64,000 nucleotides of DNA from a bacterium (GTDB taxonomy: Bacteria; Patescibacteriota; Minisyncoccia; Phycocordibacterales; Phycocordibacteraceae). A program made the position numbers and the translations under genes. The notes beneath the pieces were generated by a model, which was not told where the DNA came from, did no database searches, and saw nothing but the letters and a program-made list of their open reading frames with translations. Below are positions 150 through 51,053 of the stretch, in pieces (within the stretch, counting starts at the first letter, position 1; each line of letters begins with the position of its first letter). The stretch spans positions 16,255 through 80,254 of the forward strand of contig JAJYHK010000004.1 of the NCBI GenBank assembly GCA_021784815.1, given 5' to 3'.

Positions 150-731
150 ATGACTAAATTGTTCTCAATCGATACATCAAAAACAGCACTGGTCGTCATA
201 GACTTGCAAAAAGGCATCGCGGCGATGCAGATGGCGCCGCACTCAGCCGTCGACGTCATCGCAAACGCGGCAACGCTCGCGCAGGCGTTCCGAAAAAACG
301 GCGTACCTGTTTTTCTCGTGCGGGTGACGCCCTCGCCTGACAAGAAGGACGCGCTGCACCCGATCACCGACGTGTCAATGCAAATGCGCGATATGCCCGC
401 GGATTGGGCAACCATTGTGCCAGAGCTCGGGCCGGAGCCGACCGATTTTGTTATCACTAAGCACCAGTGGGGCGCTTTCTACGGCACCGAGCTCGACTTG
501 CAATTGCGTCGCCGCGGTATCGATACGATCGTCCTGTGCGGCATCTCTACTAATATCGGCGTTGAGAGCACGGCGCGCTTCGCGTATGAATACGGATACA
601 ACCAAATTTTTGCAGAAGATGCGTGCGCTTCGCAAGACGCATCGGATCATGTGTTCGCCATCGGAAAAATATTCCCGCGGATAGGCAGGGTGCGGAAGAC
701 AAACGAGATCATTGCGGCGATCGCTGGCTGA
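150..731 (+). CDS. Isochorismatase-family cysteine hydrolase
   Basis: N-terminal 'KTALVVIDLQKG' and overall isochorismatase-like layout (193 aa); high-GC native-looking gene. Confidence 0.75.
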   Translation: MTKLFSIDTSKTALVVIDLQKGIAAMQMAPHSAVDVIANAATLAQAFRKNGVPVFLVRVTPSPDKKDALHPITDVSMQMRDMPADWATIVPELGPEPTDFVITKHQWGAFYGTELDLQLRRRGIDTIVLCGISTNIGVESTARFAYEYGYNQIFAEDACASQDASDHVFAIGKIFPRIGRVRKTNEIIAAIAG

Positions 732-743
732 GGGTACGTAACC

Positions 744-834
744 CCGCCGAGATTCGAACTTTTTGGGAAATTAATATCGCTATATTTTAAGCCGTAGGCG
801 AAGGTACGACCCGAGTAGTTAGGATCCCTTCGCC
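744..834. repeat. Type-1 repeat copy A (about 90 bp), contains a tRNA 3'-end-like motif in reverse orientation
   Basis: 'ccgccgagattcgaac...ggaaattaatatcgctatattttaagcc...gcgaagg...cccttcgcc' is about 70% identical to the copy at 3535-3627. Its reverse complement reads GTTCGAATCTCGGCGGGGTTA (T-loop, 3' T-stem and acceptor). Long internal stem ggcgaagg/ccttcgcc. Confidence 0.5.
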
Positions 835-836
835 CC

Positions 837-905
837 CCGCCCGAAGACTTTTGTATCGGACAGACCCGACGGCCTTATTCTAGGCCATTATTACGCAGCA
901 CAATT
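837..905. repeat. Type-2 repeat copy C1 (tRNA-Ser 3'-end/att-like core)
   Basis: 33-nt core 'ccgcccgaagacttttgtatcggacagacccga' is identical to copies at 35350 and 36648. It is followed by 'cggccttattctaggccattatt', as in the 36648 copy. Confidence 0.6.
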
Positions 906-967
906 TTAGGAAATCTAGCCCACCGCGAAGGGATTCGAACTTTGGAGTGATATGCTTTGAGTAAGTT

Positions 968-3565
968 ATGGAGAAAAACGCTGCAATACAACTCAGTCAA
1001 CAAGATTTTCTCGCTCAGATCAAATCTTCAACTGACGGCCTGACTTCGAAAGAAGCCGTAAAACGGCTCACAGAAGCCGGGGCGAATATTCTTGGCAAGA
1101 AGAAGGCGAACGCCCTTGCCGTTCTCGCTCGCCAATTCAAAAGTTCGCTCGTCTATCTTCTCATCGCGGCAAGCGCCATTGCGTATTTCATACAAGACGT
1201 CCAGGACGGCACCATCATTCTCGTCATTCTTCTTGTCAACACCGGGCTCGGCTTCTATCAGGAGTACAAATCTGAGCGCATTATCGAGAAGCTCACGCAG
1301 TTCATCACGAAACAGGTGCGCGTAAAGCGCGATGGGCAATTCTCGCTCGTTGACGAATCGCAGGTTGTGCCCGGTGACGTGTTGCAAATGCACGAGGGCG
1401 ATATCGCGTCCGCCGACATGCGCCTTTTCGAAGCAACGGGACTGCAGATCAACGAGTCTCAGCTCACCGGCGAATCGGTACCAGCCGTGAAGCAACCTGC
1501 CGGAGACAGGGTATCGGAAGATAATCTTGTTTTTGCGGGAAGCGTCGTCGAGAAAGGCGAGGGTATCGGCATCGTCTATGCCACCGGCCGGGATACCCAG
1601 CTAGGAGAGATTGCCAAACTTTCAACCGAGACGAAGAAGCAAACGCAGTACGAGAAGTTTCTTCAGTCATTCAGTTCGCAATTGATGCGAGTCATTCTCT
1701 CCGTGCTTGCCCTTGTTTTTGTCGCGAAGCTCTTTCTGACCCACGGCACCTCGAATATCACCGAGCTCCTTCTCTTTATCATCGCTCTTGCGGTCTCAAC
1801 GGTGCCCGAAGTCCTGCCCGTCATCGCGACCGTTACGCTCTCAAGCGGAGCATTGAGGCTTGCCAAAAAGCATGTCGTGGTGAAGCGTCTCTCCGCTATG
1901 GAAGACTTCGGCAATGTGAATCTCCTGTGCACTGACAAGACCGGCACCCTCACGGAAAATAAAATGACCGTGAGCAAGCTCGTCTCTTCGGATGGTGCAT
2001 TATTCCAGAGGTTTGCGTTCGCTTGTATTGCACCCATCAAACACCGCAAGCACCGAACTTCCAATTCATACGACGACGCATTCATCGCATTCGTATCGCC
2101 CGCGCTCCAAAAAGAGGCATCGCGCCTCAGCATTGTGAAAGAGCTGCCGTTCGATCCAGCGGATCGGCGCCGGCGCGTCGTGCTCGAAGACAAGAAGAGC
2201 GGCGAGCATTTTCTGGTCGTGATCGGGGCGCCAGAAGTCTTGTTGCACATAGCTCACACGCCGCAGCATGCGAAGTATCAGCATGATATCTCGCTTGAGG
2301 GTAAAACCGGTCTGCATCATCTGGCGATCGCGTACAAGAAAGTGGCGTACGGCGATGACTTCGATATCTTGAAGAACGAAACAGATCTCTCATTTTTGGG
2401 ATACGTCAGCCTGCTCGATCCGCTGCGGCCGTCTGTGAAAGGCACGATCGCGCGTGCGGCGAAACTCGGTATTAAGATTAAAATACTCACGGGTGATAGC
2501 CGCGAGGTCGCTGAGTATGTCGGCAAAGAAGTCGGACTCATGCAAGAAGGCGGCAAAGTCTACCTCGGCAGCGAGCTTGAGGCGATGCCGGCCGAAGAAT
2601 TCAAGACAGCGGTATTTGACAGCGACATTTTCGCTCGTGTCTCTCCCGAGCAAAAATTCAAGATCATCGAAACGCTCAAAGAGCGGTATACCGTTGCGTA
2701 TCAGGGCGACGGCATCAACGATGCCCCCGCGCTAAAGCTTGCCGACGTGGCGATCGCGGTGAACACAGCGACCGATATCGCCAAAGAGAATGCCGACGTC
2801 GTGCTCCTCAACCGCAGTCTCGAAGTCATTATTGGCGGGATCACGTATGGCCGCTCGATCTTCGTCAACGTAAACAAGTACATCCGGTATACAATGGGCA
2901 ACAACTTCGGCGTTCTCATCGGCCTCTCGGGGCTTTACCTGTTTTCCATCAATCTCCCCATCCTTCCCGTGCAGGCGCTTCTGAACAATCTCCTTGGCGA
3001 TATTCCGCTCGTCATGGTCTCGACGGACACCGTCGAGGACGAGGAGGTGGTCGCGCCGGAGCGGCACAACGTGAAGGAACTCATGTTCATCTCGCTTATA
3101 CTCGGCGTACCGACGGCGCTGTTCGAGATACTGTACTTCGCTCTGATCCGATCGCAGCCGGTCGCGTCCGTGCAGACAAGCCTGTATGTGTTCCTCACGT
3201 TCCAGGCACTCATCATTTTCTTTGCCGTTCGCAACAAAAAACATTTCTGGAAGGCGAAGGCTCCGTCAATGATTCTCGATATTTCATTCGCCCTCGCGTT
3301 TGTTTTCGCGCTCGGCATCATCTATGTGCCGCAGTTTGAAATATGGTTCTCGTTCGTTCCGATTTCCGCAGCAGCCATAGGCACCATCGCTGTCCTCATG
3401 ATGCTTTATTTCATTGCCGTTGATTATGTGAAGACATGGTACTATCGAGCACAAACGCAAATGCCCGAACCCTCGTATATTTCCGGTGTCGCTAGGGTGT
3501 ATACGGACGTGACGAGTGGTTTAATAGGCAGAACCCACCGAGATTCGAACCAACCTCGGAAATAG
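968..3565 (+). CDS. P-type cation-transporting ATPase (HAD-like P-type ATPase)
   Basis: Phosphorylation motif 'CTDKTGTLT' and hinge 'GDGINDAPALKLADVAIAV'; about 10 TM segments. Visibly lower GC than neighbours. The last ~10 codons run into repeat copy B, so the true C-terminus may be earlier. Confidence 0.85.
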   Translation: MEKNAAIQLSQQDFLAQIKSSTDGLTSKEAVKRLTEAGANILGKKKANALAVLARQFKSSLVYLLIAASAIAYFIQDVQDGTIILVILLVNTGLGFYQEYKSERIIEKLTQFITKQVRVKRDGQFSLVDESQVVPGDVLQMHEGDIASADMRLFEATGLQINESQLTGESVPAVKQPAGDRVSEDNLVFAGSVVEKGEGIGIVYATGRDTQLGEIAKLSTETKKQTQYEKFLQSFSSQLMRVILSVLALVFVAKLFLTHGTSNITELLLFIIALAVSTVPEVLPVIATVTLSSGALRLAKKHVVVKRLSAMEDFGNVNLLCTDKTGTLTENKMTVSKLVSSDGALFQRFAFACIAPIKHRKHRTSNSYDDAFIAFVSPALQKEASRLSIVKELPFDPADRRRRVVLEDKKSGEHFLVVIGAPEVLLHIAHTPQHAKYQHDISLEGKTGLHHLAIAYKKVAYGDDFDILKNETDLSFLGYVSLLDPLRPSVKGTIARAAKLGIKIKILTGDSREVAEYVGKEVGLMQEGGKVYLGSELEAMPAEEFKTAVFDSDIFARVSPEQKFKIIETLKERYTVAYQGDGINDAPALKLADVAIAVNTATDIAKENADVVLLNRSLEVIIGGITYGRSIFVNVNKYIRYTMGNNFGVLIGLSGLYLFSINLPILPVQALLNNLLGDIPLVMVSTDTVEDEEVVAPERHNVKELMFISLILGVPTALFEILYFALIRSQPVASVQTSLYVFLTFQALIIFFAVRNKKHFWKAKAPSMILDISFALAFVFALGIIYVPQFEIWFSFVPISAAAIGTIAVLMMLYFIAVDYVKTWYYRAQTQMPEPSYISGVARVYTDVTSGLIGRTHRDSNQPRK

Positions 3566-3627
3566 AATCGCTATGTTTTAAGCCACGAGCGAAGGGGTGA
3601 CTCGAAGCTTTCGTGTCCCTTCGCTCC
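3535..3627. repeat. Type-1 repeat copy B
   Basis: 'ccaccgagattcgaaccaacctcggaaatagaatcgctatgttttaagcc...gagcgaaggg...cccttcgctc' is homologous to copy A. Reverse complement contains GGTTCGAATCTCGGTGGGTTC. Confidence 0.5.
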
Positions 3628-4307
3628 GCGGGAAATTTAAAGTATCGAGTGTTCGACGCGCCTATGTTAAACAGAGTTTACTTAAAGGGCCAATATGGTG
3701 TAGAGTCCATATACATGAACTATCAAAAAGGGTTGGCGGCAATCTGGATGATCGCACTTCTAATCATCGTCATTACGGGGGGCCGCTTATTGGTATTTGA
3801 GCCAGAGCCCAGTACAACCAACAGCTACCTCAACGACAGAATTGCAAACTCAGCAAGCATATCCCTCTCAATCAGGTCAGACTACTCAAGCGCAAACGAA
3901 CGAGCAAAATACGAACGTGCGATCTCAAACTACTACTGAAGTTAATCAGCAGACGAGCGATAATTCGACTTCTCCGACTCCTCAGTCTGTGACAGTTTCA
4001 AACCAAAATGGTCGGATGACCGCGACACCAACGGCTTCTAATACGTGGCAGTTTACTTTCGGCGGTCCGTTTGCAGAACAGCAGCAAAGCTACGTCTTGG
4101 ATTATGGTGACGGCACGTCACAGGTTAGCGTGCAGTGCAAAACCATGGCAACTAACGGCCAACCTGTCTGTAGTCAGCTTGCGCCGCTCACACACACACG
4201 TATTCGAAAGCCGGAACGTATCAGGTCCGGCTGATGGAAACGTTTGTCGGCGTCGGTCCTGGCAACGAACAAACGACCACGTTGCTGACATTGCAAGTGG
4301 CGAATTA
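3613..4307 (+). pseudogene. Disrupted or phase-variable membrane-anchored secreted protein (two compensating frameshifts)
   Basis: Frame 1 encodes a TM anchor 'AAIWMIALLIIVITGG' (3613-3939). Frame 2 carries a 146-codon open Q/T/S-rich linker plus globular part (3764-4234). Frame 1 resumes at 4171-4307 ('YSKAGTYQVRLMETFVGVGPGNEQ...'). The shift windows contain a G6 run (3777-3782) and a (CA)5 run (~4189-4199). Confidence 0.45.
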
Positions 4308-4495
4308 GAATCTTTTTCTGACCGTTCTCCCTCGTTTTGTAACGTCGCCAACTCGCCGGGAAACCCTTGTGGGGCCTGATGGGTTTTGGTTCCTCCTCAC
4401 TAGGCACCTAAATCAATCTGTCAAACAACAAAGGAAAGTGAGATCGTGCCGCTTTCTACCAAGAATTAAAATTAATTTCACAAAGACTTCCTTCT

Positions 4496-4891
4496 ATGGA
4501 TAGAATCGATGTTGCTCAAAATAATCTGGGTGGTGACGAGGGCGGGGAACCTGTCGTAGCATCTACTTACTCGTTTGAGTTCGCGCGCGAAGATTTCGCA
4601 AAACATCGGGAGATAAAAGACAAGCTCCTCAAGGTCTTGTCATATGGGGGGTTCTGCACCTCAACTGTGATAACTGTTCTATCTATTACACTCGTGCTGC
4701 TGTTGCCTACTTTGAGTGAAAGGCCGATGTTTCTGGTGCTCGCTCTTGGTCTTGCAATATGGGTAGCGGCATCTGTGGCAGCTGGAATCGCAGGAGCCGG
4801 GATATTCTACTTTTTTGTGTTTCATCATGTTTCATTACAGAACCGAGATACGGAGACTCACAAAGAAAGAAAGGGCTCTCTATTTTCTTAG
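4496..4891 (+). CDS. Hypothetical membrane protein
   Basis: 131-aa ORF with two hydrophobic segments. A stop-embedded hairpin 'ctctcta-ttttc-ttagagag' lies at 4874-4896. AT-rich island context. Confidence 0.35.
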   Translation: MDRIDVAQNNLGGDEGGEPVVASTYSFEFAREDFAKHREIKDKLLKVLSYGGFCTSTVITVLSITLVLLLPTLSERPMFLVLALGLAIWVAASVAAGIAGAGIFYFFVFHHVSLQNRDTETHKERKGSLFS

Positions 4892-4979
4892 AGAGAAGAA
4901 TCAAGTAAGTACCGTTTCGATATTTTATGCGGCATCCTCGCAGCATAGAACATTTCCTAAAACTCATTTCAATGATAAT

Positions 4980-5098
4980 GGCGAGTGAAAACGGCAAAAA
5001 TCCGTCGGGAGGCTCAATGAGGCCGTTTTAGCGTACCTGAGGTACGGGGAAACGGACGAAGCCGAGCCGCAGCAGGATTTTTGCCGTTTTCACTCGCC
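4980..5098. repeat. Perfect 24-bp inverted repeat flanking a 71-bp spacer (MITE-like or structured RNA element)
   Basis: 'ggcgagtgaaaacggcaaaaatcc' (4980-5003) is the exact reverse complement of 'ggatttttgccgttttcactcgcc' (5075-5098). Inner palindrome 'cgtacctgaggtacg'. Confidence 0.6.
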
Positions 5099-5191
5099 AA
5101 TACATAAAGGAAACGTTTAGCCCCACAAACGAGTTTACTAGCGTTAGGGAGAAGTCCTCTCTAAACCCATAATGTAAGAAAGGGTCATTCT

Positions 5192-5878
5192 ATGGTAGTT
5201 CCACGATGCCTGGTCATCATACCGGATGGAAATCGGAGGTGGGCTCGTTCGCATAATTTGACCCGATCCATAGGCCATGCTCGCGGTCTTGTAAACTGCC
5301 GAACGATAGCTGCTGAAGCTTTTAATCTTGGCGTTGAACACGTTGTCATTTGGGCTGCCTCGGAAGCAAATCTGAAGAACCGCGACTCGCAAGAAATTGC
5401 GAATCTGTTTGTCTTGTTAAAAACCGAGCTAACGTATCGCTCAAAACAAAGAGAAAAGATAGGCGTTCATCTCTGTGGCATATTACAAAAGCAAAATGGG
5501 AGAATCGATACCGAATTTGAAGATCTTGTGAGAGGGGTCCAACAAAGAACCGCACATTTTGATCAGCACCTTACTATACTGTTCGGGTATAGTGGCGTGA
5601 CTGAACTTGTCGTTGCGGCAGAAAAGGCAGCGAAGGAAGGTCCTCCCACCGAGGCGTCCATTCGGAAGCATCTCTGGACCTCCCATTTGCCCGATGTTGA
5701 TCTTTTGATACGTACAGGTGTCGAGGGGGATCCTCATTGGTCCGATTTGCTTCTGCCATGGCAATTACGCAATACGCAGCTCTATTTCAGCGAAGTGTAT
5801 TGGCCAGCGTTCACCGTACAGCACCTCCAGGGAGCATTTGAGGATTATAGCGCGCGTGTTCGTAGAGCGGGCGCTTGA
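5192..5878 (+). CDS. uppS: Undecaprenyl-diphosphate synthase (cis-prenyltransferase)
   Basis: Signature 'IIPDGNRRWA' near the N-terminus; 228 aa. Confidence 0.8.
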   Translation: MVVPRCLVIIPDGNRRWARSHNLTRSIGHARGLVNCRTIAAEAFNLGVEHVVIWAASEANLKNRDSQEIANLFVLLKTELTYRSKQREKIGVHLCGILQKQNGRIDTEFEDLVRGVQQRTAHFDQHLTILFGYSGVTELVVAAEKAAKEGPPTEASIRKHLWTSHLPDVDLLIRTGVEGDPHWSDLLLPWQLRNTQLYFSEVYWPAFTVQHLQGAFEDYSARVRRAGA

Positions 5879-5885
5879 GGTCGTC

Positions 5886-6428
5886 TTATAGACGACCTCT
5901 TTTATTTGCATGACTCGGTGCGTTTTCCAGGACGCGGCGCAGATATCGCCACTCATGCCAGGTGAGCGCAATAACGATCAGGTCGAGGACGGTGATGAAG
6001 ATAAGGAGAATCGAGTGCGTTGAGGTATAGCGGTAAATCTGATAGGCGACAAAGAGACAAAAGACGGCTATGGCGGTCGGATAATACCAGAGCCGCTTGC
6101 GTAGGAGACCGACGATGAGCCAGAGCTTCACGATGCCGTGAGCGAGGAGGTATATCGCCGCGAAGTCTCGAGCCCCTACGGACAAGCTTTGGGCGGTATG
6201 GAGCAGGTAGCGTGCGACCTTATCATGCGGGTCCTCGGCAAACTCCGCCTTCGTAACCCACAGGACCATCCGTACCAGAAACTCTTTCGATACGAAATAA
6301 GTGGCGATACCCGAGAGTATCTCTCCGAGCGCGGAAAAAGCTTTCAGCCACAGGCTGACATCGAAAACCAAGTGAATGTTCTTCTCGCTAAACAATCGTT
6401 TTATGCTAAAGGCATTTGTAGGCGGCAT
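5886..6428 (-). CDS. Multi-pass membrane protein (DUF2127-like)
   Basis: 180 aa with 4-5 TM helices. Confidence 0.45.
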   Translation of the reverse strand: MPPTNAFSIKRLFSEKNIHLVFDVSLWLKAFSALGEILSGIATYFVSKEFLVRMVLWVTKAEFAEDPHDKVARYLLHTAQSLSVGARDFAAIYLLAHGIVKLWLIVGLLRKRLWYYPTAIAVFCLFVAYQIYRYTSTHSILLIFITVLDLIVIALTWHEWRYLRRVLENAPSHANKRGRL

Positions 6429-6513
6429 GGGCTAATAGTACCGCGACCGAAGAGGTGATTTGGCTACAAGACCTCTCTCCATAACTCTTTCGGGTGCGCT
6501 ATGATTCTCTGCA

Positions 6514-8901
6514 ATGCAGGCGGATACTATGGAAGCTCCGAAGGTTGTCGGCGCGCTCGATAATCAGTTCAAGGGGCTGGTGAGCGGGGAGCTTGAGGCG
6601 CTGCGTGAACGGTACGGCTACAACGAGCTTCCGGAATTTCGCGAGAACCCGTTTATACAGTATCTCAAGAATTTCTGGGGCCCGCTCCCGTGGCTCATGG
6701 AGCTCATCGTGGTCGTCACCTATCTGTCGGGCAACCAAGTGGAGGCGTTCATTATCGTGGCGCTACTCCTCGTGAATAGCGGGATCAACCTCGTCCAGCG
6801 CCATTCGGCCGATAGAGCGCTCGCGACGCTGCGCAAGGCGATCGAGGTTACCGCGCGGGTGAAGCGCGATGGCGCGTGGCAGGTCATTGCCGCTCGCGAG
6901 CTCCTCCCGGGAGACGTTGTGCGCCTGCGCGCGGGCGACGTGATGCCAGCCGATGCAACGCTTCTTGAAGGTTCGGTGAGCGTGGACCTTTCTGCGCTCA
7001 CCGGCGAATCGCTGCCGCGGGATCTCGGGGTCGAGGAAAACGCCTACTCCGGCGGCATCGTACGCCGGGGCGAAGCGACGGCCCGCGTAACAGCGACAGG
7101 GAAGCAGACGCGCTACGGGAAGACGACGCAGCTCCTCGAGACGGCCCATCCGCCGACCCATATGGAGAAGATCGTCTTTGCTATCATTCGGTACTTCTTT
7201 CTCATTAACGTGTGCGTGGCGGTCGGCATCACCGTATTCGGCGTGCTTGTCCGCGCGTCGAGTATACAAATCGCCAATTATGACATCGTCCTCCTGCTCA
7301 TGTCGGTACCTGTAGCATTCCCGACGATGTTTATTGTCGCGCAGACCTACGGGGCGCTCCAGCTCGGGGTCGACAGCGGCACAGGCGGCGATACGGGCAA
7401 GCGTGTGCTCACGCGGCGCTTGGGCGCGGTGCAGGAAGCAGCGGTCATGGACGTGCTTTGTAGCGATAAGACCGGCACGCTCACGCTCAATCAGCTCGCG
7501 GTTTCCGCGCTTACCACCTACGGAACCTACGACGAAGCGCGCCTACTCGGTCTCGCATCGGCGGCGAGCGACACGGCCGATAAGGACTCCATCGACCAGG
7601 CTATTTTGGACCGTGCCGCGGAGATAGGCGCCGTCGTTCCGGTACGCGCAAGCTTCACCCCCTTTGATCCCTCGACGAAGCGTACGCACGCTGACGTGAT
7701 GGACGGCAACGTACCGACGGCCGTTGAAAAGGGCCTTGCCGATCTACTGCTTTCTCCCGATGTACGCTACGCGGATGCGGCGTTGTGCGATGTGGCCGAA
7801 CTAAGCACGAGGGGGCTCCGCGTGCTCGCGGTCGTCGTCTCACACGCACAGGTGGGGAAAGAGTGTGCTGGGCTCATTGGCCTCAGTGATCCGATTCGTC
7901 CCGATGCCCCCGCGCTCATTCGCGAGCTCGGCGAGCTCGGCGTGCGGATCGTCATGATTACGGGGGATGGCCGCGTGACCGCCCGCGCGGTCGCACGCGA
8001 ACTTAGTATCGAAGGCGACGTCTACACGGCGGACGAATTGAAGAGGAATCCCGATATAGCGCTCACGGGCGCCGTGTTTGCAGAAGCATATCCCGAAGAT
8101 AAGCTCACGATCATCGAGGCGCTCCAGAGGGCCGGCCACATCGTCGGCATGACAGGCGACGGGGTCAACGATGCACCAGCGCTCCATCGTGCCGAGGTGG
8201 GCATTGCGGTCCTTGGGGCGACCGAGGTTGCCAAGCAGGCGGCGAGCTTTATTTTAACGAGCGGGGGCCTCGAAGGAGTGCGCCGGGTCGTCACCGCGGG
8301 TCGCAGAGTCTATACGAGAATCCACACCTGGGTGCTCAATAAGATCGTTAAATCGATCGAATCGCTCTTCATCGGCACGGTCATTTTCGTACTTACCCAC
8401 TCGTACGTTCTCTCGCCGCTCATTGCCATTCTTATTCTCCTCTCAAACGATTTTGTCACCATATCGCTCGCCGCCGACCACACAAAGCCGATCCGCCGGC
8501 CGGTCCGGTGGAATATCCCTCTTCTGGTTGTAGGATCCTTCGTTATTGCGTTTGTGCCCTACACGTTTACCATGGGTCTCTACCTGCTTGCCCGGCATGA
8601 CGGCTACTCCTTTGCGGTGGTGCGGACCGTGGTGTACGCGTCGCTCATTTATCTCGGCGCAAGCACGGTTCTCGCCGTCCGTGCCTGGCCCTTCGGCTGG
8701 AGCGTGCGGCCAAAAGGAGTCCTCGTCGCTGCGCTCTTGTTTTCGCTCGCGTTCTCGTCGGTTGTTGCGGGGTTCGGCATATTCATCGCGCCGCTGCCTT
8801 TACGATTCTTCCCGTTCGTTATCTTAAGCACTCTCGCGAGCTTCTTCCTCATCGAGCTCGTGAAGCGTATCTCGTTTATTCAGGCGTCCGTGGGGGTTTA
8901 G
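6514..8901 (+). CDS. P-type ATPase (plasma-membrane type, H+/Mg2+-like)
   Basis: 'CSDKTGTLTLNQ' phosphorylation site and 'MTGDGVNDAPALHRAEVGIAV'; 795 aa; high GC like the core genome. Confidence 0.85.
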   Translation: MQADTMEAPKVVGALDNQFKGLVSGELEALRERYGYNELPEFRENPFIQYLKNFWGPLPWLMELIVVVTYLSGNQVEAFIIVALLLVNSGINLVQRHSADRALATLRKAIEVTARVKRDGAWQVIAARELLPGDVVRLRAGDVMPADATLLEGSVSVDLSALTGESLPRDLGVEENAYSGGIVRRGEATARVTATGKQTRYGKTTQLLETAHPPTHMEKIVFAIIRYFFLINVCVAVGITVFGVLVRASSIQIANYDIVLLLMSVPVAFPTMFIVAQTYGALQLGVDSGTGGDTGKRVLTRRLGAVQEAAVMDVLCSDKTGTLTLNQLAVSALTTYGTYDEARLLGLASAASDTADKDSIDQAILDRAAEIGAVVPVRASFTPFDPSTKRTHADVMDGNVPTAVEKGLADLLLSPDVRYADAALCDVAELSTRGLRVLAVVVSHAQVGKECAGLIGLSDPIRPDAPALIRELGELGVRIVMITGDGRVTARAVARELSIEGDVYTADELKRNPDIALTGAVFAEAYPEDKLTIIEALQRAGHIVGMTGDGVNDAPALHRAEVGIAVLGATEVAKQAASFILTSGGLEGVRRVVTAGRRVYTRIHTWVLNKIVKSIESLFIGTVIFVLTHSYVLSPLIAILILLSNDFVTISLAADHTKPIRRPVRWNIPLLVVGSFVIAFVPYTFTMGLYLLARHDGYSFAVVRTVVYASLIYLGASTVLAVRAWPFGWSVRPKGVLVAALLFSLAFSSVVAGFGIFIAPLPLRFFPFVILSTLASFFLIELVKRISFIQASVGV

Positions 8902-10529: not shown

Positions 10530-10532
10530 GGA

Positions 10533-10910
10533 TGTGGATCGAGCCGGTAAGCCGAATTCTGTCTTTTCCGCTACCGTAGTAGTGGACGAGGCGACCATGT
10601 ATCTGGGACGCTGATTGCTCAGCACCTCACGCGGCGCTCCACTATGCGCAGGTGCGCTGTGTGGCTCGGCCTTGCACGACGGTAAGGATTTAGCCGTTTC
10701 ACCCTTCGATTTCGCTTGCGCGTATGCGAAGGCTCTTCCGTTGCCGGAAGCCAGCATGCTTTCGCGTGCCGGCGTCTCTGCTCGCACCTCGCGCCTCGCG
10801 GCGTGCGGGCGTTACCCGCTACCGTACTGTCGGCATCGAAATGATGCCGCTCGTGTTCGGACTTTCCTCTGCGCGGCGTCTCCGCACAGCGGCCGCCTGG
10901 CTCGGTCCGT
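10533..10910 (-). ncRNA. rnpB: RNase P RNA, bacterial type A
   Basis: Minus-strand reading gives 'GAGGAAAGTCCGAAC' (P4 5' strand, universal GGAAAGUCCG) near the 5' end and 'ACAGAATTCGGCTTACCGG' (consensus ACAGAAcCCGGCUUA) near the 3' end. P4 pairs with a bulged U and a GG/CC to AA/UU covariation relative to E. coli. Also 'GGGTAACGCCCG' and 'AAGGGTGAAACGGC' conserved-region matches. P1 from 'GGACCGAGCC' with 'GGCTCGATCC'. Length about 378 nt. Confidence 0.8.
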
Positions 10911-11024: not shown

Positions 11025-13403
11025 ATGCCCCCGCACGTTTTTGCCGCACCGAGACGGCGCTCTTTGGACACCGTTGCTGTTTGGTCCCTCGTTTTGACTC
11101 TTTTAGTCGCGCTCATCGTCGCGACGCCGTTCGTCTCCCTCCCGCCTGCGCTCGTGAAGGGGTTTGTGCTCGGCGCCGGCGCCATTATCACGCTCGCACT
11201 CTTTATCTTTGCTCGTCTTTCGCGCGGCAATGTCATTTTTCCGCCCTATGTGCTCGTCCTCGCGCTCTGGCTCCCGGCGCTCGCCTATGGCTTCTCAGCG
11301 CTTTTCTCTGGGACGACGTTTTCTGCGGCGCTTTGGGGTACGAGTTTTGAGCCTGATACTCTTGGATTCATACTCGTCGTTACTTTCCTTGGGATGCTCG
11401 CGGCACTTCTCGTTCGCCGGGTTGAGCATTTCCGATCGTTCTTCACGGCGGCCTTCTGGGCATTTGCGGCAGTCGTTGCGATCCAGACGCTCGTGCTCCT
11501 GGTGGGGCAAGTAGCACCGGCGACGGTCTCGCCGAACTTCTCGATCGTGGGCTCATACAATAGTCTCGCGATGTTCCTCGGACTTGGCCTCGTGAGCTTG
11601 CTCCTCGCGACGCGTTTCCTCGACCTCTCCCGGCGTGCGCGCCTCGCGAGCACGGTTACCGGGGTGTTTACGCTCTTCCTGCTTGCAGTCGCCAACCTTC
11701 CGCTCGCCTGGACGCTCGTCGCACTCGTCGCGCTCGGTCTCTTTGTAGAGTCGGTCATGCGCCGGAACGGGAGTACCGGGGACGCGGATCTCGATGATGT
11801 CGCGGTGGTCGCGGAGTCGATGTCCGAATCGACGGGTGGCAGCCGCTCGCTCGTCGTACCGCTCGTCGTGCTTGCGGTGTCGCTCTTTTTCCTCATCGGC
11901 GGCAACCTTGGCAGCGCGCTTGCGAGCGCGCTGCATGCGAGCGAGCTCAACGTCCGCCCCTCCTGGCAATCGACACTCGCGGTGACGCGCCATGTATACT
12001 CGGATGCGCCGCTCTTTGGTACGGGTCCGGACACGTTCGGCAACGAGTGGCTTAAGTACCGCGATGCCGCGCTCAATCAGACGGTCTTCTGGAATCTCGA
12101 TTTCTCTTCGGGCGTCGGATTCATTCCGACCTCGTTTGCGACGACAGGCCTCGTCGGTGCTGCAGCGTGGCTCCTCTTTGCCGGGCTCCTCCTCGTACTC
12201 GGGCTGCGTATGCTCTTGCGCCGCGCGCCGCGTGATCCGTACTTGCGCTTCGCGTCAGTCGTCTCGTTTGTCGGTGCGACGTATCTCTTCGTCTCGGCGG
12301 TTTTCGATCAACCAGGCGCGGTCATGCTCGCGCTCCTCTTCGTGTTCGTGGGGCTCTTTGCGTCGCTCATGCGCCATGCTGAACAGTCGCACCAGTGGGG
12401 CATCGTCTTCTCGCGCGCTCCGCGCATCGGGTTTGTCGTCGTGTTCACGCTCACGCTCCTGCTTCTCTCGTCGGTAGCGGCCGCTTATGCACTTGTGGAG
12501 CGTTCGGTTGCCACCTCTGAACTTGCACGCGGCCTCTCGGCGCTCAATAATGGCAACATTGCCGTCGCGCAGTCGGCCGCCCAGTCCTCGATCTCGTTCG
12601 CTCCGATGCCGGAAACGTATCTTCTTGAGGCGGAAGCGGCGAACGCCCAGCTCGGGGAGATAACCTCCTCTACCACGATGCCCGCCGCAACCGCGCAGCA
12701 GGCATTCCAGGCAACCCTTTCAAACGGCATTAACGCGGCGCTTACGGCAACACAGCTTGCACCGAACGATTACCGCGGATGGGTAGCGCTTGGCAACCTG
12801 TATGCTGCAGCCGTGCCGTTTAAGGTGTCGGGCGCCTATGCAAGCGCAAAAACCGCCTACGCAAAGGCCGAGACGCTCGATCCGACGAACGCGCAGATTC
12901 CATTTGCCGTCGCGCAGCTCGATATCGCAAACAAAGACCTCGCGGCAGCCCAGGCCGATCTCCAGAAGGCGATCGCGCTCAAGCAGAATTATACGTCGGC
13001 TATCTTCCTGCTCTCGCAACTTGAAGTGCAGACCGGTAATGTAAAGGACGCGCTCGCGGCGGCTGAGGCGGCAAACTACTTCACGCCGAATAACCCGAGT
13101 ATTCTCTTCCAAATCGGCATTTTGAGCGCCGCGCAAAATGACCTCTCGACAGCCGACCAAGCGCTCGCCGCGGCAGTGTCGGTGAACCCGAAATTCGCCA
13201 ATGCCCGCTACTTCCTCGCCGCGATTCTTGCTAAGGAGGGTAATTACAGCGCCGCGCTCGCTCAGCTTCAGGCAGTTGCCGCGCTCTCGTCATCCAACCA
13301 GCAGACCGTCGCGCCGCTCATGACGGCGCTCCAGAGCAACAAGAACCCCTTCCCGGCAAACCTTCTCTCGGCCTCGTCGACCCCGGTCAAACCCGGAGCA
13401 TAG
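11025..13403 (+). CDS. Large polytopic membrane protein with C-terminal TPR repeats (O-antigen-ligase/Wzy-like)
   Basis: More than 10 predicted TM helices in the N-terminal 500 aa. C-terminal approx. 250 aa is Ala-rich with TPR-like repeats ('AYAKAETLDPTNAQ...','LKQNYTSAIFLLSQLEVQTGN'). Confidence 0.55.
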   Translation: MPPHVFAAPRRRSLDTVAVWSLVLTLLVALIVATPFVSLPPALVKGFVLGAGAIITLALFIFARLSRGNVIFPPYVLVLALWLPALAYGFSALFSGTTFSAALWGTSFEPDTLGFILVVTFLGMLAALLVRRVEHFRSFFTAAFWAFAAVVAIQTLVLLVGQVAPATVSPNFSIVGSYNSLAMFLGLGLVSLLLATRFLDLSRRARLASTVTGVFTLFLLAVANLPLAWTLVALVALGLFVESVMRRNGSTGDADLDDVAVVAESMSESTGGSRSLVVPLVVLAVSLFFLIGGNLGSALASALHASELNVRPSWQSTLAVTRHVYSDAPLFGTGPDTFGNEWLKYRDAALNQTVFWNLDFSSGVGFIPTSFATTGLVGAAAWLLFAGLLLVLGLRMLLRRAPRDPYLRFASVVSFVGATYLFVSAVFDQPGAVMLALLFVFVGLFASLMRHAEQSHQWGIVFSRAPRIGFVVVFTLTLLLLSSVAAAYALVERSVATSELARGLSALNNGNIAVAQSAAQSSISFAPMPETYLLEAEAANAQLGEITSSTTMPAATAQQAFQATLSNGINAALTATQLAPNDYRGWVALGNLYAAAVPFKVSGAYASAKTAYAKAETLDPTNAQIPFAVAQLDIANKDLAAAQADLQKAIALKQNYTSAIFLLSQLEVQTGNVKDALAAAEAANYFTPNNPSILFQIGILSAAQNDLSTADQALAAAVSVNPKFANARYFLAAILAKEGNYSAALAQLQAVAALSSSNQQTVAPLMTALQSNKNPFPANLLSASSTPVKPGA

Positions 13404-18040: not shown

Positions 18041-18111
18041 GCGGATATAGTTTAGTGGCAGAATAGATGCTTCCCAAGCATCGGGCGGGAGTTCGATTCT
18101 CCCTATCCGCA
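18041..18111 (+). tRNA. tRNA-Gly (CCC)
   Basis: Acceptor GCGGATA/TATCCGC, anticodon stem-loop gatgc-ttCCCaa-gcatc, T-arm gggagTTCGATTctccc. Confidence 0.8.
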
Positions 18112-18213
18112 CAGCGGTCAGCACGCAGTTTTTAGACTCCGAGGCCTCGATTTTGGTCCGCAACTCCGAGGGTCATTCCCGCACAAAAGCGCGATTTTGG
18201 TCGCGTTTTTGTG

Positions 18214-18339
18214 CTAATCGGCGAGTGTGACCACTCGATCGTTCAGGATGAGCCGGTCGCGCAGGTGTTCCAGCAACTCGCGCTTCTCTTCTCTGGAGCC
18301 GTTCTTGAGCAGATACTTGGCGTATTTGCGTATGTCCAT
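18214..18339 (-). pseudogene. Truncated paralog (41 codons) of the small protein at 36100-36309
   Basis: Translation '[41 protein letters not shown]' aligns with 'DLRTYAKYILKEGTNEEKRELMGCFKTKL'. Shared DNA string 'cagctcgcgcttctcttc'. Lies directly downstream of tRNA-Gly. Confidence 0.55.
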
Positions 18340-18886
18340 CTCCTTCGCCTTGATCGTATCGGTGGTCGAAGATTACTGTTCCGCCAAGCAACGAGCCCTT
18401 TATTGGTCCAGCTAAAATGGAAGGCTCTACAGGACGGGAAACACGAGGAATGAAGCTCTCATTGGTAAGTGTAAAAGCTTAAATCTAGTTCGCTACTCCT
18501 AGGCCTATTTAGAGTGGCGGCTTGTTGCCCTTACTTAGTAGAATACGTTGTGAATACTTACTCAAATCAAAGAAGAGACAAGATGTGCTTTATGGATAGA
18601 TGTGTCTCATTTACCTTATCCCGGAACCTATGCCGAGGCCTCGTCTCAATTTGGGGCTATCGGCTTAAACGGCCTCGCACTGCCTCATTCCACACAGCCC
18701 AGAACAGTTACGGGGCACCAAGCAAGAAGAAATCGAGCCCGTTATTTTAACTTATCCAGGGTCAATGCTAAGAAACTTCTTACATACGCCTTATTTTAGG
18801 CGAAAGAACCAGGTCGATTTGGCGTAATACTTGATGACGGCGCCGATTGTCTGATTTGCAGCCCGTCCGTAATTTCATCTTTTAGT

Positions 18887-19168
18887 ATGGCATCAATCAC
18901 TAATCATTCCTCAGGCGCTCGCGGCATCATTGTCGGCGGCACGATCGTCGCCATGTCGATCGGGCTGATTTTTTTAGTGCCTAAAAGCCCTGTTGGACGG
19001 CCTAAAAAGGCCCCTATAGCGATTCGCACCAACCCAACGACCATTGTCTCGCGCGGCGGGCAAGCCGTATCCCAGAACGCAGTCACGGTCGGTTCGGAAA
19101 CCATCGTTTCTGGAGTCCGCGATGCGCAGGGAGGGGTAACGGCTGATAAAATCATCGTACGTTCTTAG
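18887..19168 (+). CDS. Hypothetical small membrane-anchored protein
   Basis: 93-aa ORF with an N-terminal hydrophobic segment. Follows about 500 bp of AT-rich non-coding DNA. Confidence 0.3.
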   Translation: MASITNHSSGARGIIVGGTIVAMSIGLIFLVPKSPVGRPKKAPIAIRTNPTTIVSRGGQAVSQNAVTVGSETIVSGVRDAQGGVTADKIIVRS

Positions 19169-19232
19169 GGGAAGCGGACTTGTGGATAACCTGCAGTGGT
19201 ATACTGGCCCGTACAGTAACCATCAACGAATC

Positions 19233-19478
19233 ATGGACAAAACCGTTACCATCTACAGCACGCCGACGTGTCATTTCTGCCAGATGACGAAAGATTTTCT
19301 CAAGGAGAAGGGGATCGGCTACACCGACTATGATGTGCAGCATGACCTTGAGAAGCGCCAGGAAATGATTACCAAGTCCGGGCAGATGGGCGTGCCCGTT
19401 ATCTTTATCGGCGATGAGATGATTGTCGGCTTCGACAAGGAGAAGATCGCTTCGACACTCGGTGTATCGGCAAGTTAG
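19233..19478 (+). CDS. Glutaredoxin-like protein (NrdH/YruB-like thioredoxin fold)
   Basis: 'TIYSTPTCHFCQ' CxxC active site; about 80 aa from the internal Met. Confidence 0.7.
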   Translation: MDKTVTIYSTPTCHFCQMTKDFLKEKGIGYTDYDVQHDLEKRQEMITKSGQMGVPVIFIGDEMIVGFDKEKIASTLGVSAS

Positions 19479-19489
19479 TGCCGACCGTT

Positions 19490-19529
19490 AGCACAAGCCG
19501 CGCGGACGCTGATCCGCGCGGCTTGTGCT
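19490..19529 (+). terminator. Hairpin terminator
   Basis: Perfect 16-bp stem 'agcacaagccgcgcgg-acgctgat-ccgcgcggcttgtgct' after the glutaredoxin-like gene. Confidence 0.5.
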
Positions 19530-19540
19530 ATCGTGCTCGT

Positions 19541-19612
19541 ACCCCTCATAGCTCAATGGATAGAGCACTCCCGTCCTAAGGGATTGATGTGGGTTCGATT
19601 CCTGCTGAGGGG
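19541..19612 (+). tRNA. tRNA-Arg (CCU)
   Basis: Acceptor CCCCTCA/TGAGGGG, anticodon loop gtCCTaa, T-loop TTCGATT, CCA encoded. Confidence 0.75.
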
Positions 19613-19696
19613 ACCAGCGCTCGCTTTTCAACATTCCGTTCGGCATCGGAGGGTGCACCCGGTATACTGTACGCATTAACCACGTAACTCTCGCGA

Positions 19697-35197: not shown

Positions 35198-35265
35198 AAT
35201 AGCGAGACTTTACCATCTTTTTTCGTCTTTCGCACCGATTACAAAAATGCTAGAGTGGCATCACT

Positions 35266-35352
35266 GGAGAGGTGGCTGAGTGGTCGAAGGCACCGCACTC
35301 GAAATGCGGCGTCCGGGTAACTGGACCGTGGGTTCGAATCCCACCCTCTCCG
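35266..35352 (+). tRNA. tRNA-Ser (CGA)
   Basis: Acceptor GGAGAGG/CCTCTCC, long variable arm, anticodon loop ctCGAaa, T-arm GTGGGTTCGAATCCCAC. Confidence 0.8.
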
Positions 35353-35395
35353 CCCGAAGACTTTTGTATCGGACAGACCCGAGGGCTTATTATTA
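35350..35395. repeat. Type-2 repeat copy C2 (overlaps tRNA-Ser 3' end; attL-like)
   Basis: 'ccgcccgaagacttttgtatcggacagacccga' begins inside the tRNA-Ser acceptor 3' strand. Confidence 0.6.
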
Positions 35396-36094
35396 TTGCG
35401 CATGGTATTCATGACCGATAATCTCTGGTTTCCGCCGCTAAATGTCATTCATCACTTTCGGGAGTTGGAACGACAGGGCAAATTAGTCCCCGGCAGCAAA
35501 ATCTATCGCAAGGCGGCTGAGGGCTATATAGTTGCCATCTCGCTCATGGGCGTTATGAAGATTCTCGGCAGAGAATTTTGGATGCAACTCGTAAGTGACG
35601 ATGAAGGAAGTCCCGATGTGCGAACTGGTTGTTATGACAAGAAGATTCGTGACAATGACTTCTCGGTTCAAGACGTAGAGGTCGTGACATTCGATGAGCA
35701 TGCTTCAGAAGACAATCTGATTGACTTTTTAATGAACACCAAGCTGGCTCGAAAGAAGTCATATGACGATCAAACGACCATTTTGTGCCATGTGCATAGG
35801 CCAACTTGGGTGCCACCCTACGCGGAACTGCAGGCGTCCCTTGCCAATAAACATCTAACAACAAAAGCACCGGTAATAGTTATCGGTAGGTCTGATCCGA
35901 CCAAGGAGATCTATAAGATGGCGCAAATTTATCCAGCGGTTGATTTGGTGACATCCTTTGACTTAATAGAAGAGTGCCACAAGCATCCGAAGCGGCACAT
36001 ACTTCGTTTAAGAAGATCTGGGAAGCCGACAATTGAGGTCGTATCGAATCCTAAAGAAAAACACTATCCCTTCGAGAAATTAGGCGTGGTCTAA
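35396..36094 (+). CDS. Hypothetical protein (islet cargo)
   Basis: 232-aa ORF in visibly AT-richer DNA between the type-2 repeats; no recognisable motif. Confidence 0.4.
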   Translation: MRMVFMTDNLWFPPLNVIHHFRELERQGKLVPGSKIYRKAAEGYIVAISLMGVMKILGREFWMQLVSDDEGSPDVRTGCYDKKIRDNDFSVQDVEVVTFDEHASEDNLIDFLMNTKLARKKSYDDQTTILCHVHRPTWVPPYAELQASLANKHLTTKAPVIVIGRSDPTKEIYKMAQIYPAVDLVTSFDLIEECHKHPKRHILRLRRSGKPTIEVVSNPKEKHYPFEKLGVV

Positions 36095-36099
36095 TATTG

Positions 36100-36309
36100 T
36101 TATCCGATGGCGACAACCCCTGCTGTGATTTTGAGTTTCGTTTTGAAGCATCCCATCAGCTCGCGCTTCTCTTCATTCGTGCCCTCTTTCAGGATGTACT
36201 TCGCATAGGTGCGCAGGTCGACATCCTCGTGCTTGGCGTCAGATTTGGAGAGACCGAGCACTGTGCGCTGGAATTTATTATGGCGTTTAAGCTCTTCTTT
36301 AAACTTCAT
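36100..36309 (-). CDS. Small Lys/Glu-rich hypothetical protein (islet cargo)
   Basis: 69 aa 'MKFKEELKRHNK...YAKYILKEGTNEEKRELMGCFKTKL'. A truncated paralog lies next to tRNA-Gly. Confidence 0.45.
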   Translation of the reverse strand: MKFKEELKRHNKFQRTVLGLSKSDAKHEDVDLRTYAKYILKEGTNEEKRELMGCFKTKLKITAGVVAIG

Positions 36310-36647
36310 CTCAATGCCTGGAGAAGAAGGGTGCTGTAGCGAAAGCTTTTAGCAGAATGAGTGAACCTTCCTAGAAGGATAACCTCTGTGTTTAGTCTCT
36401 TTGGCTGGGTAAGTATGGAGAACAGGTAAGGAATTTTCGACCCGTAAGCCGCGCGAAGCGCGGCGGAGAGCAGAGCACCAAAAACAACGTGAAGTAGGGG
36501 TTGGGATTTTCCCGATGCACTTTCAGAAAAGCGAATGGTTGAGCCACAGTTCAGAGTCGCAGGGTAGTCATTCCACCGATACCGGAATGACTACCTGTAT
36601 GACTACCCTGTTTTGCTAAAATGGGTTCGAGCAAACGCTAACAACGA

Positions 36648-36705
36648 CCGCCCGAAGACTTTTGTATCGGACAGACCCGAAGGGCTTATTCTAGGCCGTT
36701 ATTGA
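36648..36705. repeat. Type-2 repeat copy C3 (attR-like), preceded by a degenerate T-loop 'gggttcgagc'
   Basis: Identical 33-nt core then 'agggcttattctaggccgttatt'. Upstream 'aaatgggttcgagcaaacg' resembles a decayed tRNA T-arm. Confidence 0.6.
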
Positions 36706-50863: not shown

Positions 50864-50955
50864 TTCTGCCTTTCAAAGGCAAGTGTTGTTCTCCTGAATT
50901 CTAGTCTGAAGCGCAACGCGCGTTTCCCTTGGCGCTGCTCCGTCTCGGTATGCGT

Positions 50956-50984
50956 ACTACTCCAGGACAAAGTCCTGGAGTAGT
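50956..50984 (-). promoter_or_regulatory. 5'-UTR hairpin of the sigma-factor gene (possible regulatory/thermosensor structure)
   Basis: Perfect 12-bp stem 'actactccagga-caaa-gtcctggagtagt'. A second small hairpin 'tgccttt-gaa-aggca' contains the putative SD (AAAGG) just before the GTG start. Confidence 0.35.
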
Positions 50985-51007
50985 AGTGCCAGTTCGAACA
51001 GGGAGGC

Positions 51008-51047
51008 AAAACACACGAGCGCCCGCGAAAGCGGGCGCTCGTGTGTT
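51008..51047 (-). terminator. Intrinsic terminator downstream of cspA
   Basis: 18-bp perfect stem 'aaacacacgagcgcccgc-gaaa-gcgggcgctcgtgtgttt'. Confidence 0.65.
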
Positions 51048-51053
51048 TGGTCG

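Follow-up and report, generated by a model that had tools for sequence, protein, structure and literature searches.

Composite islands of the staphylococcal cassette chromosome (SCC) consist of tandem cassettes with repeated att sequences and depend on the large serine recombinases CcrAB or CcrC (bioRxiv 10.1101/336396; 10.64898/2026.03.31.715619). In Prochlorococcus, tycheposons form islands that are seeded at tRNA genes and carry tyrosine recombinases and primase/helicase modules (bioRxiv 10.1101/2020.12.28.424599). Here we describe a 64-kb stretch of a patescibacterial genome (Paceibacterota/Kaiserbacteria-like; metagenome-assembled contig JAJYHK010000004.1, positions 16,255 to 80,254 of the forward strand; hereafter the window), in which a P-type ATPase gene lies between two copies, repeats A and B, of a DNA module that we call rep. 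Repeat A is followed by a second module, mid, and the two together form a junction of about 200 nt. We think it fairly probable that rep and mid are the attachment-site junctions of a tandem cargo array at the 3' end of a tRNA-Ser gene, with a phage-associated large serine recombinase (LSR) as the most likely engine. Genomes of Patescibacteria are tiny and their owners rely on other cells; how accessory functions are gained and exchanged in this group is poorly understood. Literature searches returned no account of such a system in this group.

The array resembles SCC in that the 3' end of one conserved housekeeping gene appears to be the target and the cassettes stand in tandem; SCC cargo also includes metal and transport functions. 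Cassettes without a recombinase occur in both, those of SCC (ΨSCC) relying on a recombinase supplied in trans. The target is tRNA-Ser of any isoacceptor here and rlmH in SCC, and the junctions are about 200 nt long and highly conserved here, in contrast to the repeats of about 18 nt in SCC. A single phage-linked LSR gene with a terminase gene as neighbor is seen in place of the SCC gene pair, and the host is a patescibacterium. With the tycheposon islands the array shares streamlined genomes, seeding at tRNA genes, and degenerate elements devoid of an integrase; tycheposon cargo comprises nutrient-uptake and metabolic genes. A further likeness is that successive integrations in Prochlorococcus displace older elements inward and partial tRNA copies lie between cargo modules. 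Unlike the tRNA pieces of about 40 nt found there, the modules of about 200 nt lie mostly beyond the tRNA, the recombinase is of the serine type, and none of the tycheposon hallmark genes is present in this array. Target, host, the class or context of the recombinase, and the size and conservation of the junctions all set the system apart from both SCC and tycheposons.

Three other classes of elements are comparable in part. Islands of the integrative and conjugative element and cis-mobilizable element types, which form by accretion, likewise have a tRNA 3' end as anchor, direct repeats, and att-flanked segments lacking a recombinase. The present array differs from them in that the integrase gene is absent, the segment of identity lies almost wholly 3' of the tRNA, and the ATPase gene is not foreign in composition. 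Integron arrays are also one-sided, with unrelated cargo, a recurring recombination module, and a first gene that is mostly co-oriented with and close to the module; in contrast to them, IntI, attI, and covariation in a hairpin are missing here, a segment can contain as many as five genes, with both strands in use, and the anchor is a tRNA gene. Temperate phages of the phiC31, Bxb1, and A118 types, which use serine integrases, have an LSR gene at the prophage end beside attP, adjacent phage genes, and a defined site, as do the LSR loci described below, whereas the window has no phage genes and holds only att-like modules and cargo of cellular type.

Structure of the junction modules

The earlier note on this DNA had described two direct repeats around the ATPase gene, and these are present at 741–839 and 3532–3630, with a length of about 96 nt and an identity of 70–73%. 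Three comparisons gave 70% over 71 nt plus 77% over 22 nt, 71.4% over 98 nt (BLAST, E 2.5e-7), and 72.6% over 95 nt, respectively. In a profile search with nhmmer, repeat A (741–836, plus strand, beginning CCGCCGAGATTCGAAC) matches the full rep module with an E-value of 1.9e-26, and repeat B (3532–3627, plus strand) with one of 2.1e-24. The 18-nt core ATCGCTATRTTTTAAGCC has two sites in the window, one in each repeat, compared with an expectation of 0.03 per 64 kb from shuffles. Repeat A is 87–92% identical to copies in other genomes, and repeat B 74–78%. The rep family numbers 22 copies in 17 patescibacterial sources, and 15 full-length copies share 86% identity per column. The ATPase reading frame does run into repeat B, with an overlap of 34 nt; the repeat holds only the last nine or so residues of the C-terminal tail, and the rest of the tail is homologous to that of relatives.

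A BLAST search with the sequence separating repeat A from the ATPase gene identified mid at 837–943 (plus strand, nhmmer E 1e-34). This module has an invariant 32-nt core, GCCCGAAGACTTTTGTATCGGACAGACCCGAG, and ends in CCGCGAAGGGATTCGAAC, 25 nt 5' of the ATPase start codon. A longer version of the same contig, referred to as L001 (other contigs are numbered likewise), reaches 9 kb further upstream, where a window position equals the L001 position minus 9033; 73 kb were thus examined in total. The window copy of mid is 98% identical to L001:5266–5370, 97% to the copy in L076, and 84% to that in L112, and its first 40–55 nt recur in the window at 35350–35400 and 36648–36703. The upstream copy begins within the last bases of a tRNA-Ser(gga) gene (L001:5182–5270), and the copy at 35350 within the last bases of tRNA-Ser(cga) (35265–35355). 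The sequence adjoining repeat A at 837 is identical to that following tRNA-Ser(cga), as had been noticed before. The anchor of the array, tRNA-Ser(GGA), is a plus-strand gene outside the window; 4.6 kb separate it from repeat A, which lies downstream.

The junction unit of about 200 nt opens and closes with the same motif of about 18 nt, seen as CCGCCGAGATTCGAAC and CCGCGAAGGGATTCGAAC (744–759, 925–940, and 3535–3550), so that each cargo block is directly flanked on both sides by an inverted T-loop-like sequence. It is rich in copies of the motif GCGAAGG/CCGAAGA, and at its center, where the tRNA-like part gives way to mid, the sequence by inspection appears to read CTTCG-N8-CGAAG. On the plus strand, the 3' end of rep aligns with the T-arm and the acceptor 3' strand of tRNA-Ser. 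This part is a diverged tRNA-Ser-like version, and the exactly shared sequence, which starts with CCGCCCGAAGACTT, lies mostly beyond the tRNA.

The reverse complements of the repeats carry the motifs GTTCGAATCTCGGCGGGG and GTTCGAATCTCGGTGGG, which had been taken for the T-loop and acceptor of a tRNA remnant on the minus strand. The motifs exist, but they are no tRNA remnant that could serve as an anchor: ARAGORN predicts ten tRNAs in the window and none at 741–836 or 3532–3627, Rfam has no match over 600–6600 either at the gathering threshold or at E ≤ 10, and the anchoring tRNA is on the plus strand. By inspection, the T-stem-like flanks are unpaired in repeat A and no 5' strand complements the presumed 3' acceptor. 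A tRNA-Leu(UAA)-like anticodon loop on the minus strand, seen in an alignment to the class II tRNAs of the window, was abandoned as a candidate, the family being co-oriented with plus-strand tRNA-Ser.

Each repeat has a long internal hairpin, as claimed previously, but that of repeat A is not unusual, its folding z-score against shuffles being −0.75 on the minus and −0.23 on the plus strand; repeat B reaches −2.48 on the minus strand. This hairpin in either window copy, the z-score of repeat B, and the strong sequence conservation would suit a small structured RNA, either a tRNA-like small RNA or a leader, acting on neighboring genes. Such an RNA should leave covariation in the family, and none is found over the 15 copies: the covariation term from RNAalifold is +0.4, a double change occurs in 2 of the 17 pairs, and the outer stem is disrupted without compensation in 6 of the 15. 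Together with the lack of an Rfam family and the ordinary fold of repeat A, this makes an encoded RNA the explanation to which we give the least credence. Both repeats thus represent one conserved DNA module of about 96 nt; they are not tRNA genes and have no conserved RNA structure.

Array order and recurrence in other genomes

The order of genes and modules along the contig is LemA, NUDIX, M48, DUF805, tRNA-Ser(gga)·mid, MFS, MarR, ABC, ABC2, isochorismatase, repeat A·mid, ATPase, and repeat B. The isochorismatase gene (150–731, plus strand; Pfam PF00857, E 1.6e-45), previously considered a native flank, closes the first cargo segment, which starts after tRNA-Ser(GGA)·mid, and hence sits inside the same array. 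Repeat B is a junction of the terminal type, with no mid after it; a search for a decayed mid there gave nothing significant (local score of 8 downstream, compared with a mean of 8.7 in shuffles). Beyond repeat B lie a broken surface-protein gene and a third junction-type element, rep3 (4303–4393). Because of this rep3 copy, the array probably extends past repeat B into a stretch of low third-position GC, and possibly onward to about 5.9 kb.

Related arrays were sought with two sequence patterns. A scan with the invariant core of mid gathered 41 metagenome contigs. A scan of genome contigs with a 17-mer of rep returned mostly chance matches, the genuine ones being L076 and L019, both from Patescibacteria. 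Array features were mapped by nhmmer profile searches and ARAGORN. Mid is present in all 41 metagenome contigs, which were retrieved by its own core, and also in L076 and L019, which were retrieved by rep. In L076, M48 and tRNA-Ser(gga)·mid are followed by a segment with D-Ala-D-Ala carboxypeptidase, a hypothetical protein, and DUF218, then rep·mid, IMP dehydrogenase and GMP synthase, rep·mid, multicopper oxidase, and a last rep·mid. Tandem cassettes with repeated junctions are found in the window and its upstream extension as well as in L076, L101, L108, L119, L102, and L098. The cargo between the junctions differs and is unrelated from genome to genome. Like the window array, those in L105, L119, L099, and L124 close with a rep that lacks mid. 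What follows this last rep in L124 is similar to the terminator 3' of the unoccupied tRNA-Ser in L004.

Immediately 5' of mid stands a complete tRNA-Ser gene 14 times (four each of cga and tga, three each of gct and gga) and rep 16 times; elsewhere mid follows degenerate T-arm-like fragments or one of two further right-end types, rep2 and rep3. No tRNA species other than tRNA-Ser ever stands directly before it. In 15 of 27 cases, mid ends 1–47 nt 5' of a co-oriented start codon, which hints that it may play a role in expression. To judge its conservation, we used as benchmarks the M48 proteins of the window genome and L076, which are 54% identical, and the third codon positions of the ATPase genes of the window and L112, which are 46% identical. 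The identities of 97% and 84% between the respective mid copies are far above neutral and indicate functional constraint.

The same observations can be read without site-specific recombination. Mid would then be a conserved functional trailer of tRNA-Ser, serving as a terminator, a processing signal, or a promoter of the next gene, and rep·mid a regulatory intergenic module, spread by duplication, gene conversion, or RecA crossover, and the ATPase gene an ancestral neighbor. The presence of mid after all four isoacceptors seen and its position close before start codons agree with this, and so do the native composition of the cargo and an ATPase locus that has no repeats (L005), both considered below. 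A scan of the modules for consensus promoters and terminators, however, found nothing above shuffles, and a nucleotide identity of 97–98% across genomes whose proteins are 54% identical tells against such a trailer, as does unrelated cargo in different genomes. The mid core is furthermore found beside the LSR gene in phage-like or viral contigs devoid of tRNA (L133 and L136). We therefore regard this explanation as improbable and continue with attachment-site junctions as the preferred one.

Base composition and the ATPase as cargo

The second segment carries as its cargo the ATPase gene (968–3565, plus strand), whose product belongs to the type III P-type ATPases and is a cation pump of the H+- or Mg2+-like kind by its Pfam architecture. 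Its domains are PF00690, PF00122, PF00702, PF13246, and PF00689, covering the N-terminal, E1-E2, HAD, and C-terminal cation-ATPase parts. Two NCBIfam models match below their cut-offs: TIGR01647 (IIIA_H) with 497 against 615.5 bits and TIGR01524 (IIIB_Mg) with 458 against 610.75.

The GC content at third codon positions (GC3) was referred to 55 open reading frames (ORFs) of the window, which have a mean of 0.660 and a standard deviation of 0.080. In sliding windows, total GC is 0.52–0.54 at 1–3.5 kb, 0.46–0.50 at 3.5–6 kb, and mostly 0.56–0.64 elsewhere. The ATPase gene had been called AT-rich by eye. Its total GC of 0.531 is indeed lower than the 0.579 of the window, but its GC3 of 0.657 (z −0.04) and synonymous codon use (z +0.32) are typical. 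The first two codon positions account for the low total, as the amino-acid makeup of a membrane protein would lead one to expect (GC at second positions, GC2, of 0.358). Genes of the first cargo segment have a GC3 of 0.62–0.76, among them the isochorismatase gene (GC 0.557, GC2 0.433, GC3 0.670, z +0.13), and the second ATPase gene of the window, at 6514–8901, has a GC of 0.607, a GC2 of 0.437, and a GC3 of 0.734 (z +0.92). Three ORFs deviate: 3797–4234 (GC 0.502, GC2 0.541, GC3 0.459, z −2.50), 4496–4891 (GC 0.465, GC2 0.394, GC3 0.447, z −2.65), and the uppS gene at 5192–5878 (GC 0.492, GC2 0.419, GC3 0.454, z −2.56). The low-GC island that had been placed at 735–5900 thus persists in its right part only. 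Compositionally foreign DNA covers about 3.63–5.88 kb, right of repeat B, with a GC of 0.46–0.50, and excludes the ATPase gene. The lesson for annotation is that GC judged by eye put the anomaly in the wrong place.

These values bear on the idea that the ATPase gene is a recent low-GC cation-pump island in a tRNA gene, with tRNA 3' halves on the minus strand of the repeats. The minus-strand motif GTTCGAATCTCGG(C/T)GGG is real and is kept in the family as CCGCCGAGATTCGAAC, and the total GC of the gene is low in relation to the window. Its GC3 and codon use do not fit a recent import, there is no minus-strand tRNA nearby, and the ARAGORN and Rfam searches were negative at the repeats. In 16 of 16 other rep contigs, rep has the same orientation as a plus-strand tRNA-Ser, as mid, or as the two together. 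The repeats are paralogous members of a family, each closer to copies in other genomes, and not a duplicated target site. A recent island is accordingly very unlikely. What stands of the tRNA-targeted cassette proposed in the earlier note is an ATPase gene between two recombination-site-like modules, tied to tRNA-Ser and recurring in L112; its arrival as a recent low-GC import does not.

Copies of the ATPase protein with 100% identity are present on contigs in ENA, Logan, and NCBI. Homologues with 55–78% identity and a source name come nearly all from Patescibacteria or Paceibacterota, and one comes from Mucilaginibacter. The L112 counterpart, 77% identical, is enclosed by tRNA-Ser(gga)·mid on one side and rep on the other, hence in the first segment rather than the second. 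This protein is 91% identical to that of L003, yet the contexts are unrelated (tRNA-Ser(gga)·mid and tRNA-Gln, respectively), which hints at transfer. In L003, the gene follows tRNA-Gln between the genes for CTP synthase and a methyltransferase, with neither rep nor mid, and in L004 it follows tRNA-Ser(tga). L019, where tRNA-Ser(cga)·mid is followed by about 1 kb and then rep, belongs to the same metagenome-assembled genome as a 76%-identical homologue, P0002. Across L112, L003, L004, and L005, the pump is repeatedly linked to tRNA genes while its context changes.

Directly repeated tRNA 3' ends were sought around the ATPase genes of L003, L004, and L005; only a small repeat linked to tRNA-Gln in L003 rose above noise. 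There, at L003:7362–7575 and just upstream of P0002, tRNA-Gln(ctg) precedes a direct repeat of 33 nt, with copies 113 nt apart, and a degenerate tRNA 3' fragment, an arrangement that appears to be the same kind of scar at a different tRNA.

A large serine recombinase as the candidate engine

ORFs of all array contigs were clustered and the recurrent ones annotated, which brought out an LSR with Resolvase, Recombinase, and Zn_ribbon_recom domains in L105, L120, L100, and L113. In L105, its gene lies 117 nt beyond the terminal rep and is followed by phage-like genes. Genes for a ParB-methylase and the terminase large subunit are neighbors of the LSR. More than 8000 matches to the family were scored. 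The top 120 are 80–96% identical, with source names that include Niyogibacteria, Levybacteria, Yanofskybacteria, and Kerfeldbacteria. Among NCBIfam models, the patescibacterial LSR scores best with CcrB, far below its cut-off (131 against 900 bits).

Some 100 nt past the stop codon of the LSR gene, a mid-like core, CCGCCAAGACAATTTTTTATCGGCATGACCCGAG, is present in three contigs, L133, L136, and L105, of which the first two are phage-like or viral contigs without tRNA. The same core directly follows tRNA-Ser in further LSR-bearing contigs, namely L139 and L141 (gct), L144, L145, and L146; three of these LSR loci are IMG/VR viral contigs with tRNA-Ser(tga). A scan of viral contigs with the mid core had given no match, and a later protein-based scan did reach the LSR contigs. 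The occurrence of the core both beside the LSR gene and after tRNA-Ser points to the mid core as the recombinase-side half-site and to tRNA-Ser 3' ends as the target.

Remnants of the recombinase exist in the window itself. A decayed second element at 35265–36703 (plus strand, GC 0.47) begins with tRNA-Ser(cga) (35265–35355) and mid (35350–35400), followed by an ORF of 232 residues without a family match. An LSR C-terminal remnant on the minus strand (36133–36318, tblastn E 7.8e-10) lies between this tRNA-Ser(cga)·mid and a second mid at 36648–36703, and the right-end module rep2, which is also found in L108, occupies 36546–36630. Another LSR C-terminal remnant (18217–18354, minus strand, tblastn E 1.7e-6) follows tRNA-Gly(ccc), identified by ARAGORN, in the stretch 18041–18354. 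From this remnant, an ORF-poor sequence (GC about 0.50) continues up to tRNA-Arg(cct), within 18041–19616, which suggests another degraded integration, at a different tRNA. Both remnants lie in low-GC patches.

A tyrosine integrase specific for tRNA-Ser, acting with an excisionase in the manner of classical accretion islands, might instead have built the array, with the LSR a mere passenger. This possibility arises from L124:6158–12256, the one place where a motif screen found a tyrosine integrase; here tRNA-Ser(gct) is followed by this integrase and Xis (HTH_17-like), a directly repeated 15-nt copy of the tRNA 3' end with mid, an AEP-primase/helicase, Fic, and a partial rep. The integrase and xis genes lie exactly between the tRNA and the displaced CTCCCTCCCTCTCCGC plus mid, and homologues of 66–71% identity adjoin tRNA-Ser(gct) in L130 and L132. 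These homologues, however, have no rep or mid nearby at E ≤ 1, and the sequence after their tRNA-Ser is unrelated to mid. The integrase module of L124 looks like a later insertion beside an older mid, and it is one contig among about 43 with rep or mid, as against four with the LSR and the two LSR remnants in the window. We rate this alternative as unlikely, though not negligible. The L124 integrase family as a whole, which is abundant and linked to tRNA-Ser(gct) and tRNA-Cys, was rejected as the engine because it comes without rep or mid. Two different recombinase systems would seem to use the same tRNA-Ser end in L124. The recombinase associated with the array is most likely an LSR and not a tyrosine integrase of the classical tRNA-targeting kind, and we infer that the LSR, rather than another enzyme or RecA, built the array.

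In the proposed mechanism, the first 32 nt of mid would be the element-side half-site adjoining the recombinase gene, and the 3' end of rep, a mimic of the tRNA-Ser 3' end, the other half-site. With these roles, an internal rep·mid looks like an intact attP and tRNA·mid like attL. The attP of an element, with rep as its left arm and mid as its right arm, would recombine with the 3' end of tRNA-Ser. Later arrivals would enter beside the tRNA and shove older ones outward, leaving rep·mid at internal junctions and rep plus the native flank at the far end. The ATPase segment would be either a recombinase-less cassette moved in trans or what remained after loss of the recombinase and phage genes.

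Several observations tell against this reading. Canonical serine integrases do not recombine attP with attL, and tandem attP-like junctions are not expected from these unidirectional enzymes; accretion would hence require a relaxed specificity like that of Ccr, or homologous crossover within mid, which is about 105 nt long. No recombinase gene is found in or beside the array or in the 73 kb, which hold remnants only; a tyrosine-recombinase motif is absent from every frame of the window and L001, and tblastn with the L124 integrase has no match in the window. In exact-protein look-ups, every match had the arrangement already known and short-read contigs broke at the repeats; neither an empty site nor a circular junction nor polymorphism among strains was found. 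LSR contigs other than L105, L120, L100, and L113 have the mid core and not the full rep plus mid, and L124 has its tyrosine integrase and Xis beside mid. Both the ATPase gene and the first cargo segment have native composition. Finally, synteny without the repeats, which would speak for a resident gene, was looked for in relatives and found in one, hence in part: in L005, LemA, M48, and tRNA-Ser(gga) are followed by two to three genes, including an AbiE-like pair, and then by the ATPase gene, with no rep or mid. The pump may thus be an old neighbor of tRNA-Ser. Taken together, native composition and the synteny in L005 imply that the ATPase segment either has a long history in this genome or derives from a compositionally similar donor. 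We infer that it was once mobile in the lineage and arrived long ago or from such a donor.

If attachment-site junctions are the right explanation, each tRNA-Ser gene of the lineage would be a landing site at which cargo accumulates, always behind a conserved junction of about 200 nt, and one highly conserved LSR would be the likely engine. Ion pumps, metal resistance, and purine-salvage enzymes are among the cargo seen. The LSR and its natural attachment sites would then be a candidate for the discovery of recombinase tools. A more far-reaching and only tentative proposal, which we hold to be possible but doubtful, is that rep·mid is the att site of recombinase-less cassettes that hijack the LSR of a temperate phage circulating across Patescibacteria, giving a tRNA-Ser-anchored exchange of transport and salvage genes among lineages of Patescibacteria. 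The cargo that prompts it includes P-type ATPases, copper resistance, IMP dehydrogenase with GMP synthase, and adenylosuccinate lyase.

Two LSR-bearing contigs have further features. In L139:4375–11920, and likewise in L140 and L141, a 6-kb copper-resistance cluster is located between the LSR gene and tRNA-Ser(gct)·mid core. It encodes a CsoR-like repressor, a P1B ATPase, DsbD_2, and a multicopper oxidase, which suggests that such a position repeatedly receives ion pumps and metal genes as cargo. L136 carries, at 194–1246 and 11108–12410, a reverse transcriptase with a bAvd-like gene, a pair resembling that of diversity-generating retroelements, and a second serine recombinase.

The stretch right of repeat B and a further RNA gene

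The broken gene next to repeat B (3716–4300, plus strand, low GC3) encodes a surface or secreted protein with an N-terminal membrane anchor. Three-frame translation bears out the frameshift noted previously and locates two, one at a G6 run (about 3790) and one at a (CA)5 tract (about 4195). Rep3 (4303–4393, plus strand) is the single match in the window (nhmmer E 1.2e-6) to a profile built from L101, L106, L099, L109, and L113, and in other contigs its sequence stands directly before mid. It is followed by a gene for a predicted membrane protein of 131 residues (4496–4891, plus strand), which matches no Pfam or NCBIfam family.

A long imperfect palindrome of 127 nt (4976–5102) consists of 28-nt arms (4976–5003 and 5075–5102) that are 96% complementary and separated by a 71-nt spacer. 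The inverted repeat thus exists, but its interpretation as a miniature inverted-repeat transposable element is not sustained, the sequence being single-copy in the window and all loci compared. Two independent short-read contigs end inside it. The polyprenyl diphosphate synthase gene uppS (5192–5878, plus strand; Pfam PF01255; TIGR00055, 132.5 bits against a cut-off of 109.55) is the last low-GC3 gene before the composition turns normal. UppS is usually encoded by an essential housekeeping gene. The gene had been suspected to be a second copy and is the sole one in the window and the 9 kb upstream.

More low-GC patches are found at 54084–54578 and 50500–51500, including an ORF with a GC3 of 0.49 (z −2.1). 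The window also contains an RNase P RNA of class A (10532–10908, minus strand), which barely attains the Rfam gathering threshold (100.2 against 100) and has large insertions and deletions relative to the model.

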